A stretch of 40,586 nt of DNA from a plasmid: the NCBI RefSeq assembly GCF_055900595.2, contig NZ_JBVWEU010000005.1; one strand, 5' to 3'. Position 1 is the stretch's first letter; every line of letters begins with the position of its first letter. Shown piece after piece: positions 12,014 through 22,540 of this stretch. The position numbers were made by a program, and so were the translations under genes. The notes under the pieces are model-generated. The model had not been told where the DNA came from and ran no database searches. It saw nothing but the letters and a program-made list of their open reading frames with translations.

Positions 12014-12798
12014 TGCCTACTGCAGATAAAAATAAAAAACAGAGTGAAGCTGAATCAGTGCCGGTACGCCATGCTGTTCACAGCGCCCAGCAAGGAAAAG
12101 GTGGTTGTGGTAAATCCGTTAGCACCGCTTTGGTGGCAATGTACAAGATTAGCAAAGGTGAGCTACCGCTGTGCATCGATACCGATCCGCTCAATCCTAC
12201 ATTCTCTAATTATGAAAAACTGAACGTCCGACAGCTGAACATCATGGAAGGTGATGAAATTAATCAGCGCAAACTGGATACCCTCATCCAGTGGATTGAT
12301 GAAGCCGGTGATAGGGACGTTATTATCGATAACGGCGCTCCGTCATTTATTCCGTTATCAAGTTATATGATTAGCCAGCAAATCCCCGCCCTGCTTTATG
12401 AAATGGGTAAACAGCTTGTCATTCATATCTCGATTGTGGGGGGGCAGGCACATGATTACACCGTCGAGGGGTTCAAGGCCATGGTGGAGCAGTATCCGTC
12501 AGAAACCCGTTTTGTTGTCTGGCTTAACCCGTATTGGGGCGCGGTGGAATCCGATCAGGGAGTGCCATTCGAAGAATCAGAAGCGTACCTGATGAATAAA
12601 GACAAGGTTGATGCGCTTATCCGTTTGCCTACACTCAAAAAGGAGTTACACGGCCAGGACTTTGCCGACATGCTGGAAAACTACAAGACCTTCGATGAGG
12701 CCATTGAAGATAAATCATTATCTATTATGGTTCGCCAGCGTCTGAAACAGGTTCGCGCCCTTATTTTCGAACAGCTTGATTTAGCAACGGTGATCTGA
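12013..12798 (+). CDS. traL: TraL P-loop ATPase (MinD/ParA-like)
   Basis: 261 aa, Walker A QQGKGGCGKS; start overlaps the traK stop. Confidence 0.8.
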   Translation: MPTADKNKKQSEAESVPVRHAVHSAQQGKGGCGKSVSTALVAMYKISKGELPLCIDTDPLNPTFSNYEKLNVRQLNIMEGDEINQRKLDTLIQWIDEAGDRDVIIDNGAPSFIPLSSYMISQQIPALLYEMGKQLVIHISIVGGQAHDYTVEGFKAMVEQYPSETRFVVWLNPYWGAVESDQGVPFEESEAYLMNKDKVDALIRLPTLKKELHGQDFADMLENYKTFDEAIEDKSLSIMVRQRLKQVRALIFEQLDLATVI

Positions 12799-13238
12799 TG
12801 GATGATAAGACGGAAGAACTCATTGCGCTCATTGCTAAAAAGCATGGTATAGCCCTGGATGAAACCGATCCGATTATGGTCGTTCCTACCCTGCTTCGTT
12901 ATTTGCTGGATGAAAGCCAGGAGAAACAGGGTGAAATTCTGGATGAGTTTAAATCCGAGCTACAAAGCGCCCTGATGCAATGGGATTACAGCGCGAAGGA
13001 TAAGGCTGACCGTATCCTTAACGCCGCGCTAAAGGCGAATACGGAAGTAATGGAGCGGGTTTTGACATCTGCCGCCACAGAAACCGCTGTCATAATCAGA
13101 AAGGAAGTTCAGGACGAGATCAGAAAATCGCGGGCGCACATAGAAGGGGCAAGAAAACTTGCCATGATGAATATGGCGGCGGCGGTGATCACCTTAATGG
13201 CTGCTGCCGTCGCATTCATTGCAACGTTTTACAAGTGA
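12798..13238 (+). CDS. traM: TraM-like protein
   Basis: 146 aa, overlapping start/stop with traL, hydrophobic C-terminus; position as in RP4. Confidence 0.7.
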   Translation: MDDKTEELIALIAKKHGIALDETDPIMVVPTLLRYLLDESQEKQGEILDEFKSELQSALMQWDYSAKDKADRILNAALKANTEVMERVLTSAATETAVIIRKEVQDEIRKSRAHIEGARKLAMMNMAAAVITLMAAAVAFIATFYK

Positions 13239-13240
13239 CT

Positions 13241-13253
13241 ATTAGCCGCTAAG
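13241..13253. promoter_or_regulatory. degenerate KorB-operator-like palindrome (ATTAGCCGCTAAG) next to a perfect one
   Basis: 11 of 13 matches to TTTAGCSGCTAAA, 1 bp from the site at 13255. Confidence 0.4.
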
Positions 13254-13254
13254 T

Positions 13255-13267
13255 TTTAGCGGCTAAA
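13255..13267. promoter_or_regulatory. KorB operator (OB) TTTAGCGGCTAAA
   Basis: Perfect 13-bp palindrome matching the RK2 OB consensus TTTAGC(C/G)GCTAAA. Confidence 0.8.
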
Positions 13268-13357
13268 ATTTTGTTATGTTGTAGCGTGCCTTATCGCCAA
13301 CCGGCCTGAACCCCGTTTATCGGGGTTTCGCTGTTTTTAGGGGGTAGGAATTGTTGC

Positions 13358-13385
13358 GGAAAAAAATCCCCGCATGACGGGGATT
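13358..13385 (-). terminator. rho-independent terminator downstream of the kfrA-like gene
   Basis: Hairpin ATCCCCG-CATGA-CGGGGAT preceded on the plus strand by an A-run (a T-run on the minus strand). Confidence 0.55.
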
Positions 13386-13395
13386 CTGTAGCTGA

Positions 13396-14076
13396 TCAAG
13401 TTATTGTTCTTGTAAGGCTCAGACCATTCCCTTTACTTAGTGATGGGGCCTGCTCTCTTTGTAGCTTTTCTTTCTGTTCTTTCGCCTGCTTCCGCATGAG
13501 ATTCTCATGCGCTCGCTGTGCAGCCCGCATTTCATCCCATCCTTCGGCAAGCTCTGGTTTATCATGCCGCACTTTGGCCGTCGCAAGTTCGTGTATACGC
13601 GGGCCATGTAACCCCATCCCGTCATGAATCTCTTTGACAGTTTCCAGCCGGTTCTGCAGGCGACTCAGCAATGACTGTTGTTGTTGTACCTGTGACTTCC
13701 ATTTTGCCTTCTGGCCGGGCAGAGCCAAAAACCCAGGCTGACGACTCATCATCTGCTGCAGAACCGCCTCCTGCTTGTCTATCAGCGATTCCAGCCGGTT
13801 TTCAAGGTTTTCTGCCTGCGTTTCTTTATCCGCTACTGCCGCCTCTACCGCATCCTTATATTCCTGCTCAATGTTACCGGCGTCAGTTTGCGAATCCTGC
13901 AAATGGGAAGGGTCATTGATCAACTGCTGCTGTTCGTCATGCAGTTGCTGTACCTGTTCCTGGATATTTACGGCTTCCGACTCTGCGAGAAGATCAGGTG
14001 TAATATCAGGCTGCTGACGAGGGGAGGAGGTATCCCGGACCGCGCCGGGATTTTTAAATGGGGTAGTTGGCTTCAT
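13396..14076 (-). CDS. kfrA: KfrA-like coiled-coil protein
   Basis: 226 aa, Q/E-rich, predicted long alpha-helical; position after korB as in RK2; perfect SD AGGAG. Confidence 0.55.
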   Translation of the reverse strand: MKPTTPFKNPGAVRDTSSPRQQPDITPDLLAESEAVNIQEQVQQLHDEQQQLINDPSHLQDSQTDAGNIEQEYKDAVEAAVADKETQAENLENRLESLIDKQEAVLQQMMSRQPGFLALPGQKAKWKSQVQQQQSLLSRLQNRLETVKEIHDGMGLHGPRIHELATAKVRHDKPELAEGWDEMRAAQRAHENLMRKQAKEQKEKLQREQAPSLSKGNGLSLTRTIT

Positions 14077-14097: not shown

Positions 14098-14451
14098 CTA
14101 TCTGGAGAACTTCCGGCCCTGCTTCTCTGTGGCTGCTGCTACCTGAGCTTTACCGGAAGTCTGGTCATACGAAATACTTTTTTCCGTACCTACCTCTGGC
14201 AGTTTATCGAAATTTTGGCGATCATGCTTGAAAATCTGCTTACCTACCTGCTGATATACTGATTGCTTATCTGCGTGTAAAATCGGCCCATTATAAGAGC
14301 TGGCTTTATCCGGCCCCTTGGACAGATAAAGCGGGTAAATGCCTGGCTTTATGCTGCCCGCTCTATCAACATTGTCATTTTTCCATTTTCCAGCTTCTTC
14401 GCTTTGCAGCACTCGCTGGCCGTTCATGACAAGAACACGCTGTTTGCTCAT
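14098..14451 (-). CDS. hypothetical protein (first gene of the kfrA-like operon)
   Basis: 117 aa, perfect SD AAGGAG; no recognisable motif. Confidence 0.5.
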   Translation of the reverse strand: MSKQRVLVMNGQRVLQSEEAGKWKNDNVDRAGSIKPGIYPLYLSKGPDKASSYNGPILHADKQSVYQQVGKQIFKHDRQNFDKLPEVGTEKSISYDQTSGKAQVAAATEKQGRKFSR

Positions 14452-14948
14452 GTCGGTGTTACTCCTTGTGTTATCATCAACCGTCTGTATTGAGATAGGG
14501 CTAACTGCTATTTTTAAGTTGAATCGGCAACTGATTACCCAACTACTCTTTAACCATCATCCAGGTATTCTCCGGCCCTATGGATAAATGCCGTTAAAAA
14601 TGCGTTTGTGGGCTTCTTTCAGGCGCTGTTTGTCGAAAGGACCAAGATAGGGCTTTCTTCCAGCTACGATAAGTTAAGAGCTATTGTGTCACGCTCAATC
14701 CCTCATCCCAGCCAGGTTGATAAGGATGTCAGTACTCTGATACAGATATTGGTGTTTTTGCCGCTCATTCCTAATGTTGTTTTGCATGTTGAGTATGGTT
14801 CTTAACTCTCCCTGCGTCACCTTACTCATAAGTAACATCACCGGTAATGATGCGTTTTTAGGAAATAGCCGCCAGGAACCATGAATTCTCTGCCCTGACG
14901 GAACTACATAGCCCTCAGGTTAAATTTTGTTTAGCTACATCTATACAT

Positions 14949-14961
14949 TTTAGCGGCTAAA
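14949..14961. promoter_or_regulatory. KorB operator (OB) TTTAGCGGCTAAA
   Basis: Perfect 13-bp palindrome. Confidence 0.8.
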
Positions 14962-14983
14962 ATTATGCAATAAATAATATTAA

Positions 14984-15010
14984 TAAAAAAAATCCCGCGA
15001 CTGCGGGATT
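14984..15010 (-). terminator. rho-independent terminator after korB
   Basis: Hairpin AATCCCGC-GACT-GCGGGATT with a T-run on the minus strand, 22 bp past the korB stop. Confidence 0.6.
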
Positions 15011-15031
15011 CTGAGCGGAAATTGATACCTT

Positions 15032-16045
15032 TTATCCTTCAATAAGGCAAATTATTTTCACGTTTTCGAGATTTAGCTCTTCTTCTACACCAGTTGAATC
15101 AAACTTAATCCAGGCAAGCCCTTCTTCACTTGGGCGCTTGGTCAGGATAAGGCGGCCCTGCTCCCCCAGGTACTCAACGATAACAATAGCCTTTTTGAAT
15201 TTATCAGGATCGGTTTCCTTTTCTGGCGTCTTACGGACCTTATCGGTCACATCGTTATCATCGTGGCCGTCCGTATCATCTTCGGCAGCTTCCGAATCGG
15301 TACGGCCATTGAAGGCGTCAATGGTGTCTGGATCACGCTTGCTGGATTCTTTTTCGTCCAGGAACTCACGGAAAACTTTCACCGCACTACGGGTAATGTC
15401 TTCACCCTCGTTCTCTTCAAGCAGTTTTTGAACTTCTTCCGGGTCTTGCTTGTAAGCCGTTACCAGCTCATTAACTACGGTAACATCACGGATTGAACCT
15501 TTATTAAAAGCATCTGCTATACAATCCGGCAGGTCCAGCAACGCTGCGTGTTGGGTTACGAACGCTGGCGACTTGCCAAGCCGTTTAGCAATCTGAGATT
15601 TTGATACCCCCTCAGCCAGTTTGCGGCCAATGTGTACGGCAATTTCACGCGCCGTCAGGTCATTACGCTGGATGTTCTCAATGACCTGATCATCGTCGCT
15701 ATAGTCATTATCGATAAAAGCGGGAATTTGTTTCTTCCCGGCCACTTTACTGGCTCGCCAGCGACGTTCTCCATGGTTAATAATATAGCGCCCCGCTTGC
15801 TCCGGGTTCTCGCGAACGGAGACAGGCATTTTCACACCACGCGCTTTAATGGTATCAGCCAGCTCCTTAATGGATTCCTCTGAGAACCCTGGGTTGTCCT
15901 GCTTACGCGGTTGTTCAGGATCGGGATCAATCGCATCAACGTCCAGCATCAGTGGTTTACCCTCAGCACCTGCAGACGCATCAAGAAAGTCGGAGAGATC
16001 ACCAACGGTATCAAGGCCAAGGCCGGAAGAATTTTTTTTAGTCAT
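15032..16045 (-). CDS. korB: KorB (ParB-family partitioning protein and global repressor)
   Basis: 337 aa, ParB-like, acidic linker, follows incC with start/stop overlap; its cognate operators are scattered across the window. Confidence 0.85.
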   Translation of the reverse strand: MTKKNSSGLGLDTVGDLSDFLDASAGAEGKPLMLDVDAIDPDPEQPRKQDNPGFSEESIKELADTIKARGVKMPVSVRENPEQAGRYIINHGERRWRASKVAGKKQIPAFIDNDYSDDDQVIENIQRNDLTAREIAVHIGRKLAEGVSKSQIAKRLGKSPAFVTQHAALLDLPDCIADAFNKGSIRDVTVVNELVTAYKQDPEEVQKLLEENEGEDITRSAVKVFREFLDEKESSKRDPDTIDAFNGRTDSEAAEDDTDGHDDNDVTDKVRKTPEKETDPDKFKKAIVIVEYLGEQGRLILTKRPSEEGLAWIKFDSTGVEEELNLENVKIICLIEG

Positions 16046-16809
16046 TATGCAATCTCCATCTTAGTAAAAACATGATAGGCCAGTGCTCTCATTTCCTGGC
16101 TGGCTTTACGTGCTGCTGTCTTCTTGATTTTCCAGACAGGGACATGTGAAGCCAGTGCATCAGCAATGCTGCTTCGCAACCCGACAGACACAGGAACCAT
16201 TAACGTAGGGTAGGCCGTCTGCAGCTCCTGCAGGTGGTTTACATGGCGAGGATTGCGACCATCTACCTTACTTGGAACCATACCAATAAATTCCAGCTTG
16301 CTGTTCATTTTGCGTTTCACCTGGGTGAAGGTGGTCAGCATTTTTTTAATACCCTGAATTGAGTACACCTCAAGCTCAATAGGGCATACCACAAAATCAG
16401 CGCTCGCCAGCGCAACTATAAGCGCATTGTTAACCGTAGGCGCAGTATCAATCAGGCAGACGTCAAAGCCACTGTCCGCCAGCTGCTGCAGGTTATGGCG
16501 GAACTGCTTCACCATTTCCGGCAGATTTAATTTTTCTACGTTTGCCAGTTGAATATCTGACTCAATGAGAGAAATTCCGCTCTCAGGCATTTGAGTAAAG
16601 CGAGTTGGCTCGATCTCGCCCCACATTTCATTCGCTTTAATGCCGGACGAGAACTGTTTCAGGGTAAAAGAGGCGTTGCCCTGGGTATCCATATCGATTA
16701 CAGCAACCCGCTTGCCTCGTTCTGAAAAATCAAATGCCAGATGAACCAGGGTGGAAGTCTTGCCAACACCACCTTTTTGATTTGCTGTAACCAATACTTT
16801 CATAGCCAT
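16045..16809 (-). CDS. incC: IncC (ParA-family partitioning ATPase)
   Basis: 254 aa, deviant Walker A KGGVGKTS typical of ParA/MinD. Confidence 0.85.
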   Translation of the reverse strand: MAMKVLVTANQKGGVGKTSTLVHLAFDFSERGKRVAVIDMDTQGNASFTLKQFSSGIKANEMWGEIEPTRFTQMPESGISLIESDIQLANVEKLNLPEMVKQFRHNLQQLADSGFDVCLIDTAPTVNNALIVALASADFVVCPIELEVYSIQGIKKMLTTFTQVKRKMNSKLEFIGMVPSKVDGRNPRHVNHLQELQTAYPTLMVPVSVGLRSSIADALASHVPVWKIKKTAARKASQEMRALAYHVFTKMEIA

Positions 16810-21625: not shown

Positions 21626-21673
21626 GCGCCCCTCAACTGTCATAAAAAAAATATGTGCCCCTCAAGTGTCACC
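21626..21673. repeat. two further iterons, the second overlapping the trfA stop codon
   Basis: gcgcccctcaactgtca (core 21629-21635) and gtgcccctcaagtgtca (core 21658-21664); the trfA stop (plus-strand tca at 21662-21664) sits inside the second core. Confidence 0.75.
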
Positions 21674-22540
21674 ATTCCTCGCTGCGGCATCGTTAGTTCG
21701 TTTGCAATGAATACGATCTTTATCTATCCAAGCACTATGAATTAACCCACTATCTTTAAGCTCAGCACATGCTTTATTAACCTGCTCTCGCCACTTTTTC
21801 AGGCGGTCGGATTCCGAGCCACACATCATCTTGAATGTATCTAATTTCATAGGATATGGCTCCCGGTGAGAACCAAAGTAATCAAAGAGGCGGCGAGCTG
21901 TAGGTGAAAGTTTACGGTATTTCTCCCACACAAACTTTGAATAGTGCTCACCTGCAAAAAGCAAAACCATCTCTTTATCAATGATGACTTCACATCTTGA
22001 CGACCGTTTCCCACGGTCAAGAACGCGAAAGCGACCAATCAATGAAACAGATTCCAGTTGACCGACACGCTCAGAAATAAATTGCATGGCTGTTGCCTGT
22101 AGGCGTGTTAGGCACTCCTCGGCCTTTTCTATATAACGACCATTATAAGACCAGCCTAGATCCTGGCAAAGTTCGTAAAACGTGAAGGTAATAGGTTCAC
22201 CCATTGGTTTCCTTTTGGCGTATTCAAGAACCTGCTGCCACACAAGTTCATCGTCATCAGCACGTAACTCAAGCCCGGTATAGGTGATCCGCACATCTTT
22301 ATTAATGTGGAAAATCTCTTTCTTCTGCAGTGCTTCACGGGGCTGACGTTTATTCTTGACAGTAAACAGAGCAGAACGAGCATAATCGTTAGGTAATGCC
22401 CGCATCGAATCCGGCCATGGTGCAATGTCAAATAGCGTCAGTTGCTTCTCTGTCTGCCCTTCATTCGCCATTCTGGAGCGCTGATCAAGCGCTGCCTTTT
22501 TTAGCTTTTCAAGTTCAGAATTATTATTGTCATTCTTCAT
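21662..22540 (-). CDS. trfA: TrfA replication initiator
   Basis: 292 aa; segment LSPTARRLFDYFGSHREPYP matches TrfA as I recall it; iterons immediately downstream. Confidence 0.85.
   Translation of the reverse strand: MKNDNNNSELEKLKKAALDQRSRMANEGQTEKQLTLFDIAPWPDSMRALPNDYARSALFTVKNKRQPREALQKKEIFHINKDVRITYTGLELRADDDELVWQQVLEYAKRKPMGEPITFTFYELCQDLGWSYNGRYIEKAEECLTRLQATAMQFISERVGQLESVSLIGRFRVLDRGKRSSRCEVIIDKEMVLLFAGEHYSKFVWEKYRKLSPTARRLFDYFGSHREPYPMKLDTFKMMCGSESDRLKKWREQVNKACAELKDSGLIHSAWIDKDRIHCKRTNDAAARNGDT

Follow-up and report, generated by a model that had tools for sequence, protein, structure and literature searches.

The stretch of DNA analysed here, hereafter the window, is 40,586 nucleotides long and carries an IncP-1-like plasmid backbone, with trfA-ssb, trbA-trbB and the genes that follow, traC to traJ, traK-traL-traM, kfrC-kfrB, korB-incC-korA, kleE, and klcA/klcB. 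About 30 plasmids of approximately 41 kb are nearly identical to it, and about 80 more share 95–99% identity; the hosts of these relatives are E. coli, Klebsiella, Salmonella, and Enterobacter, and the mcr-1 plasmid pMCR16_P053 is among them. The nearest distinct relative in PLSDB is pDS1, whose TraM is 73% identical and which has been assigned to IncP/P-1 subgroup eta within a narrow-host-range “clade II” (PMC9499019). The window, too, belongs to this “clade II” of IncP/P-1 plasmids, whose hosts here are Enterobacteria. The trfA gene stands apart from the rest of this backbone: TrfA (21668–22480) is only ~78% identical to that of pEC187_3, against 95–100% for the remainder, which suggests a swap of the replicon (trfA), as has been reported for pMNCG080-1 and pMNCG082-1 (PMC9499019).

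The locus of interest lies between two convergent gene ends. On the plus strand, traM (12798–13238), the last gene of the traK-traL-traM operon, marks the end of Tra1; it was identified as an open reading frame and from the annotation of identical plasmids. On the minus strand lie the partition-accessory genes kfrC (13396–14076) and kfrB (14098–14451), both recognized as open reading frames and by annotation and separated by a spacer of 21 bp that contains no KorB operator (OB). Further along the minus strand are korB (15032–16045), which encodes a ParB-type protein and was identified by annotation and by its matches to structures of RK2 KorB, and incC (16045–16809), annotated as the ParA partner of KorB. 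No OB with up to two mismatches is found in the window between 13267 and 14949. The gene kfrA, which classical IncP-1 plasmids carry between korB and kfrB, is absent; in its place is a segment of 580 bp (14452–15031) with an OB at 14949 and a sequence resembling a KorA operator (OA) at 14929. Plasmid pDS1 likewise has no kfrA at this position.

Three bp after the traM stop codon (TGA, 13236–13238), positions 13241–13267 read ATTAGCCGCTAAG-T-TTTAGCGGCTAAA, that is, a left 13-mer, a single T, and a right 13-mer. The right 13-mer (13255–13267), a palindrome to which no strand is assigned, is a perfect match to the consensus TTTAGC(G/C)GCTAAA and forms the core of the feature. The left 13-mer (13241–13253, likewise without strand) matches TTTAGC(N)GCTAAA at 11 of 13 positions, its mismatches being confined to the outermost bases, 1 and 13, so that the inner 11 bp are intact. 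As the central base is C in the left copy and G in the right one, each copy is the reverse complement of the other. This is precisely the arrangement described in the first-pass annotation, an 11-of-13 copy followed after 1 bp by a perfect KorB site downstream of traM.

Such sites are far from random in the window. OB-like sequences with up to two mismatches number 14 where 1.3 are expected, a count reached by none of 100 shuffled sequences, and the ten perfect OBs (any central base) are found at conserved IncP-1 landmarks. Chance would place ~0.01 sites with up to two mismatches no more than 20 bp from an OB, summed over all the perfect ones, and no other OB of the window has a partner with up to three mismatches within 40 bp. 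Given this background density and the lack of any other paired OB in the window, the pairing of left and right copies is not due to chance.

The first-pass annotation looked to KorB and IncC as the proteins acting at the site, and the plasmid does encode such a pair. The window's KorB matches the structures 8qa8 (E = 1e-91) and 1r71 (E = 7e-63) of RK2 KorB. In the alignment the protein keeps the equivalents of R117, N146, T211, and R240 of RK2 KorB; the numbering of the residues was inferred through the chain offset of 1r71, and this offset lands exactly on T and R. In RK2 KorB, R117 and N146 serve in CTP binding and hydrolysis (PMC11790492), while T211 and R240 are the residues responsible for operator specificity (PMC3597684). 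The bases beside the operator centre, which T211 and R240 contact, are intact in both half-sites of both copies. Since the specificity residues are unchanged, the cognate protein expected to recognize the site is encoded in the window itself. Thus, the right 13-mer is palindromic, is accompanied on its replicon by a KorB with the appropriate residues, and belongs to a set of copies distributed at landmarks; we have high confidence, as far as sequence comparison allows, that it is a functional KorB operator.

What, then, is the left 13-mer? The most informative comparison is with a locus of Pantoea sp. Mb-10 (L040), where, directly after kfrC, the sequence reads TTTAGCCGCTAAA-T-TTTAGCGGCTAAA in the orientation of the window, with both copies perfect. 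This 27-mer shares with that of the window the T spacer and the order of the centres, C and then G. The locus is a remnant of a related, IncP-1 clade II-like backbone; it carries, in order, korA, korB, an OB, kfrB, and a kfrC-like gene, and it has neither incC nor tra genes; its proteins are 71% (KorA), 67% (KorB), 85% (KfrB), and 62% (KfrC) identical to those of the window. It occupies 175262–181656 of NZ_JAJSDX010000006.1, inside a contig of 356 kb, and retains four perfect OBs. Because the same 27-mer occurs there with two perfect copies, the left copy of the window is a diverged second OB, and the claim that both elements are KorB-type operators stands on this homology. The left 13-mer is accordingly a decayed operator and no chance look-alike.

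Whether the decayed copy still matters is less clear. Four members with the long form of the spacer described below, including L108 from Salmonella diarizonae, the most diverged of them (TraM 96.6%), served to gauge conservation in the clade, with 27% variable columns as the proxy for neutral change. The whole 27-mer has one variable column of 27 (P = 0.002), the left-copy position 13, which is either G or C, and the perfect copy has none of 13 (P = 0.017). The left copy taken alone has 1/13 (P = 0.096), and the adjacent spacer, from the OB to the ATG, has 7/21. Selection on the left copy is suggested by these figures, and residual KorB binding to it seems plausible, as its divergence spares the bases beside the centre. 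Its inner 11 bp stay constant through ~110 plasmids, and L108, diverged as it is, shares them; on the other hand, its two outer bases, which are off consensus, never revert to it.

The same copy could also be a functionless relic, created when an inverted duplication, by a template switch at the palindrome, doubled the OB, and decaying neutrally since, so that only the perfect OB matters. Several observations fit this account: the OB of pDS1 at the corresponding place is a single one, the outer bases of the left copy have left the consensus and its position 13 drifts between G and C, its conservation taken alone is not significant, and both the C/G centres and the palindrome at the Pantoea locus, which extends into the flanks, are in keeping with an origin by inverted duplication. 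However, neutral decay does not explain easily why the inner 11 bp have stayed constant while the 21-bp spacer next to them varies, and double OBs in which both copies are perfect, 14–21 bp apart, recur on many unrelated contigs, suggesting that doubling is selected. We regard the relic as a serious possibility, though one that probably does not hold.

The mutual complementarity of the two copies has a structural consequence. Together they form a perfect inverted repeat of 11 bp on the plus strand (13242–13266), with arms at 13242–13252 and 13256–13266 and a loop of 3 nt, GTT, for which a folding energy of −15.5 kcal/mol (z = −4.2) is calculated. The one base that varies within the clade, position 13 of the left copy, sits in this loop. 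Followed by the tail AATTTTGTTA (13267–13276), the hairpin was flagged as terminator-like by the terminator scan, for traKLM transcripts. It is conceivable, then, that what is preserved in the pair is a hairpin, of RNA or DNA, serving as a rho-independent terminator or a 3′-end stabilizer of traK-traL-traM, and that the left copy is kept for base-pairing instead of for KorB binding. In favour of such a role are the perfection and stability of the stem with AATTTTGTT behind it, its start only 3 bp after the traM stop, the complementary centres, and the confinement of the sole variable base to the loop. At the Pantoea locus the complementarity even exceeds the operators: the double OB there is embedded in a perfect palindrome of 35 bp, with a 16-bp stem of −28 kcal/mol.

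The T-run, however, is peculiar to the window's own deletion variant. In the long-form relatives, L108 among them, the same hairpin is followed by AAAAAATCC or AAAAAGTCC and is not terminator-like, and the Pantoea palindrome has no T-run on either side. As the stem occurs in all variants and the U-run in one only, a conserved terminator function of the hairpin is ruled out, and the tail AATTTTGTTA of the window is an accident of deletion. Moreover, a stronger terminator, conserved in all spacer variants, lies 40 bp downstream; this second hairpin with T-run (13308–13338, plus strand) has a calculated energy of −17.5 kcal/mol. Plasmid pDS1 lacks the second copy, and double OBs elsewhere have centres that are not complementary (G/T in L037, G/G in L197). 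Maintenance of the pair for the sake of a hairpin is, in our judgment, improbable. The opposite strand has a conserved terminator of its own for the kfr operon, a hairpin followed by U7 (UUUUUUU) at 13360–13387, located 8–11 nt after the kfrC stop (−15.9 kcal/mol, z = −3.3).

The deletion just mentioned is one instance of a broader polymorphism of the traM-kfrC spacer. About half of 109 relatives lose their BLAST homology at query positions 119–128, which places the junction, a feature without strand, at 13268–13277 of the window; the relatives carry from 376 bp to ~1.1 kb of extra DNA at this point. In the long-form relatives the extra DNA begins exactly after the perfect OB and contains a 77-aa ORF, then a second perfect OB and a KorA operator (GTTTAGCTAAAA), and then ~130 bp leading to the shared terminator; some relatives add a further ORF, of 160 aa and flanked by inverted repeats. 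The 77-aa ORF (740–973 in L004 and ~866–1100 in L108) is conserved, follows the double OB immediately on its downstream side, and is not present in the window; it has no match in Pfam, and the long-form spacer yields nothing credible in Rfam. Downstream of it, the segment 1031–1255 of L004 holds the second perfect OB, the KorA operator 25.5 bp later, ~130 nt, and a strong terminator, and is absent from the window except for its 3′ end (13277–13345). It looks like a small transcription unit controlled by KorA and KorB, in which no ORF was called; a promoter scan and an Rfam search of the segment gave nothing convincing. In pMCR16_P053 (L006, 11190–11800), the 160-aa ORF is on the minus strand of an insert with the 77-aa ORF on one side and the second OB on the other, and its flanking inverted repeats of ~30 bp (ttaatgctaatgta.gc.tacattagcattaa) make it look like a small mobile insertion.

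In all, the spacer has at least four structural forms within a clade that is 95–100% identical (window 13268–13345; L004 740–1255; L006 10945–12050). The right flank of the site in the window (AAAATT…) matches the flank of the second OB of the long form and not that of the first, and the perfect OB seen in the window may have arisen by fusion of these two OBs. Rearrangements repeatedly end exactly at OB palindromes: this is so for the deletion in the window, for a deletion of 83 bp in pCCRI24236-3 whose start coincides with the end of the second OB, and for the end of homology with the Pantoea remnant. OB palindromes may thus be hotspots of deletion or recombination.

To place the site among known KorB operators, its position was compared with that of OB3. 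Williams et al. (1998) reportedly showed OB3 to be the one KorB site that RK2 must carry in cis to be partitioned by IncC and KorB. In all seven classical or classical-like plasmids compared, namely R751, pUZ8002 (L008, a derivative of RK2 used here to represent it), pBAM1, pMBUI1, pSM0227-02, pKAM329_2, and pTE_T100_4, an OB lies in the kfrB-kfrC spacer, and none is found in the traM-kfrC spacer of the six that were scanned for it, which are the same plasmids except pTE_T100_4. The arrangement is reversed in the window and in pDS1, where the kfrB-kfrC spacer is free of OBs and one lies directly after the traM stop; that of pDS1 is single, perfect, and 2 bp from the stop codon. The double OB of the Pantoea locus is also on the outer side of kfrC, and the site itself is present in ~110 members of the clade. 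An exact positional equivalence to OB3 is thereby ruled out. The comparison points instead to a positional successor of OB3 that has moved ~0.7 kb across kfrC, and it indicates that an OB3-type site can both change sides of kfrC and be doubled.

The resemblance to OB3 goes beyond this. OB3 of RK2/RP4 and R751 has the same 13-bp consensus, the KorB proteins are 67–70% identical in the DNA-binding region with conserved specificity residues, and OB3, like the window site, goes with the far end of the kfr operon beside Tra1, with no KorA operator or promoter adjacent to it. The differences are that OB3 is single and in the kfrB-kfrC spacer (R751, 834–846; L008, 5850–5862), whereas the window site is doubled and in the traM-kfrC spacer, and that the window's clade, unlike the classical IncP-1 plasmids with OB3, lacks kfrA. 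The other IncP-1 operators (OB1, OB2, OB9, OB10, and others) have an identical consensus and serve as clamp-loading sites for repression assisted by KorA or TrbA; they are near promoters and paired with KorA operators, while the OB at 13255 has neither in this variant.

The same contrast is seen within the window. The OB at korAp (17247) has an OA 32.5 bp away, that at trfAp/trbAp (23056) has one at 31.5 bp, and that at the kfr promoter (14949) is 20.5 bp from the OA-like site at 14929; further OBs are at trbBp (23533) and at traJ/traI (10857). For the OB at 13255, the nearest sequence resembling a KorA operator is 1.67 kb away, and this is the window's only intergenic perfect OB between convergent gene ends, those of traM and kfrC. 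Because it is the counterpart of OB3, lies between convergent ends, and has no promoter or KorA-operator partner, it is the best candidate for a centromere among the OBs of the plasmid.

We therefore lean, by analogy with OB3 and with no more than moderate confidence, to the following proposal: the element is a doubled KorB operator at the border of Tra1 and the maintenance genes, and its right copy is most likely a promoter-independent, centromere-like loading site for IncC-driven segregation. From the identity of the sequence, the homology of the left copy, the conserved position, and the conserved KorB residues, we infer KorB binding, clamp loading, and a role in partition at the site. KorB dimers would bind the right copy and, with CTP, close into clamps that slide off along the DNA; the IncC (ParA) ATPase would then segregate the plasmid from KorB loaded there. 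The left copy would probably bind KorB weakly, offering additional opportunities for loading or a local roadblock, and would be dispensable, since pDS1 has one copy. A parallel is offered by the IncU plasmid RA3, whose KorB and IncC are homologues. Its centromere is reported to lie at the border of maintenance and transfer genes, a position like that of the window site, and KfrA and KfrC are reported to bind KorB. The RA3 parS differs in operator sequence and in gene order, as it follows korB-orf11-mpr.

Several points weigh against a centromere. For this clade the proposal is drawn by analogy; as KorB clamps slide, each of the ~10 perfect OBs might in principle support partition; and double OBs are found elsewhere in operator and promoter contexts, while pDS1 has no second copy. 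In the long-form relatives, in addition, the site is 21 bp upstream of the start of the 77-aa ORF, so that a regulatory role is possible there.

It may be, then, that the main job of the site is regulation, with loaded KorB sliding to distant promoters or blocking transcription locally, and that partition is served by the OB ensemble. Distant targets could be the traK/oriT region ~1.8 kb away or the promoter of kfr, which has a KorA operator at 14929; local ones could be read-through from traM into the small ORF of the long-form relatives or antisense transcription of kfrC. KorB sliding from a distal OB and locked by KorA silences promoters up to 1.5 kb away, and KorB bound at an OB can be a roadblock to other clamps (PMC11790492); the nearest OA-like site is at 1.67 kb. 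The double site just upstream of the 77-aa ORF fits a regulatory role, as do the double OBs that other contigs carry in the trbA-trbB (L037) and traJ-traI (L194, L218) intervals. Nevertheless, the kfr promoter has an OB of its own ~20 bp from its OA-like site, and neither the window nor pDS1 has a gene start beside the site. One OB is kept at the distal kfr end in the window, in pDS1, in L040, and in six classical or classical-like plasmids, nine IncP-1 lineages in all, in parallel with OB3 and its demonstrated role in partition. A mainly regulatory function seems to us rather unlikely, and we retain the centromere-like loading site as the preferred reading.

The doubling itself is a separate matter. 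The first-pass annotation had taken the two adjacent sites as able to nucleate a spreading complex and had seen in them a candidate centromere. The second part of that suggestion agrees with our preference, which is based on position, but the adjacency contributes little to it. KorB is a CTP-dependent sliding clamp for whose loading one OB suffices, and in vitro it brings about no condensation of DNA (PMC11790492), so that a neighbouring site is not required. Nor is doubling the mark of a centromere, because double OBs occur in varied contexts and the OB of pDS1 is single. A centromere does not need the tandem arrangement and cannot be diagnosed from it.

How common are such pairs? In a BLAST search of PLSDB with the perfect double OB, a true double site is found only in the window's clade; the other matches (Neisseria, Xanthomonas, Burkholderia, Nitrincola, and the kfrB end of IncP-1 plasmids) were rejected as single OBs with fortuitous similarity in the flanks. 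A wider sample of genome and metagenome contigs yielded at least 81 distinct pairs of perfect OBs with spacings up to 42 bp; most matches of the pattern scan in the genome collection were discarded as unrelated hairpins, REP-like repeats, and coding repeats. Among the matches listed, the distances between centres are 14 bp (three pairs), 15 bp (eight), 16 bp (one), 17 bp (three), 18 bp (six), 19 bp (ten), 20 bp (three), and 21 bp (two), so that 36/81 pairs fall between 14 and 21 bp. None of these matches has a spacing of 13 bp, and that of the window, 14 bp, is the minimum natural spacing among them. The contexts include trbA-trbB (L037/L107, 14 bp) and traJ-traI, besides the position after kfrC at the Pantoea locus. 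No description of natural tandem OB sites was found in the literature searched.

Doubling thus appears to be a general variant of OB architecture. The second site may raise the frequency of loading or act as a local roadblock, in line with the finding that KorB seated on an OB can stop the passage of other clamps (PMC11790492), and two KorB dimers at a centre spacing of 14 bp may clash sterically. The parS clusters of ParABS systems, on chromosomes and on plasmids, are comparable in that several ParB-loading sites close together raise the local density of ParB-CTP clamps. They are, however, usually tens to hundreds of bp apart, whereas the centres in the window are separated by 14 bp and simultaneous occupancy is uncertain. 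A degenerate partner was also considered as a possible hallmark of OB3. RK2 OB3 has a neighbour with two mismatches 25 bp away, and the site of pKAM329_2 abuts a copy with three mismatches in the region of the kfrB stop; no degenerate neighbour is found for R751, pBAM1, pMBUI1, or pSM0227-02. As ~1.5 matches with up to three mismatches are expected over all the OBs checked, these neighbours were treated as chance.

A more speculative view, which we put forward as a doubtful one, is that close double OBs (14–21 bp) are a selected and recurrent KorB architecture that is not part of the RK2 paradigm of 12 single sites. They would give more clamp output, or a one-sided roadblock that biases sliding; the pair discussed here would be the centromere of clade II, and its palindrome an indel hotspot of the spacer. 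Irrespective of this, the element is for the most part familiar: an OB is expected in the IncP-1 backbone, and the modest twist is its doubling and its position outside kfrC in a little-studied clade.

Knowing which KorB site is the centromere would help in the design of curing tools based on incompatibility and in understanding the stability of these plasmids, which, at ~41–80 kb, circulate in E. coli, Klebsiella, and Salmonella, some of them, like pMCR16_P053, with mcr-1. Natural double OBs with spacings of 14–21 bp, common in metagenomes among the matches listed, are also a simple test case for the sliding-clamp model, in which the effects of an adjacent or weakened second site on clamp loading and directionality can be followed.

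Other arrangements of the operator were seen in the course of the survey. In a metagenomic plasmid contig (L188, 12618–12702), three perfect OBs are found within 85 bp, beginning 31 bp after incC-korB; the first two are 14 bp apart and the third is 58 bp further on, an arrangement like that of a parS cluster. At least 31 distinct OB pairs in contigs L139–L255 (samples Ga0307507 and Ga0307515) are exactly 40 bp apart and share a conserved spacer, …TGCGGCATTTATAATTAAGTATTAGCA…; this family represents another kind of repeated element, built on the identical 13-bp palindrome. Finally, plasmid pYL19 of Xanthomonas fragariae (L137, 397–453) has a second type of palindrome, GATAGCAGCTAGA, in two copies beside a consensus OB, once at a distance of 14 bp; this palindrome may be an operator recognized by some other protein of the ParB/KorB kind.
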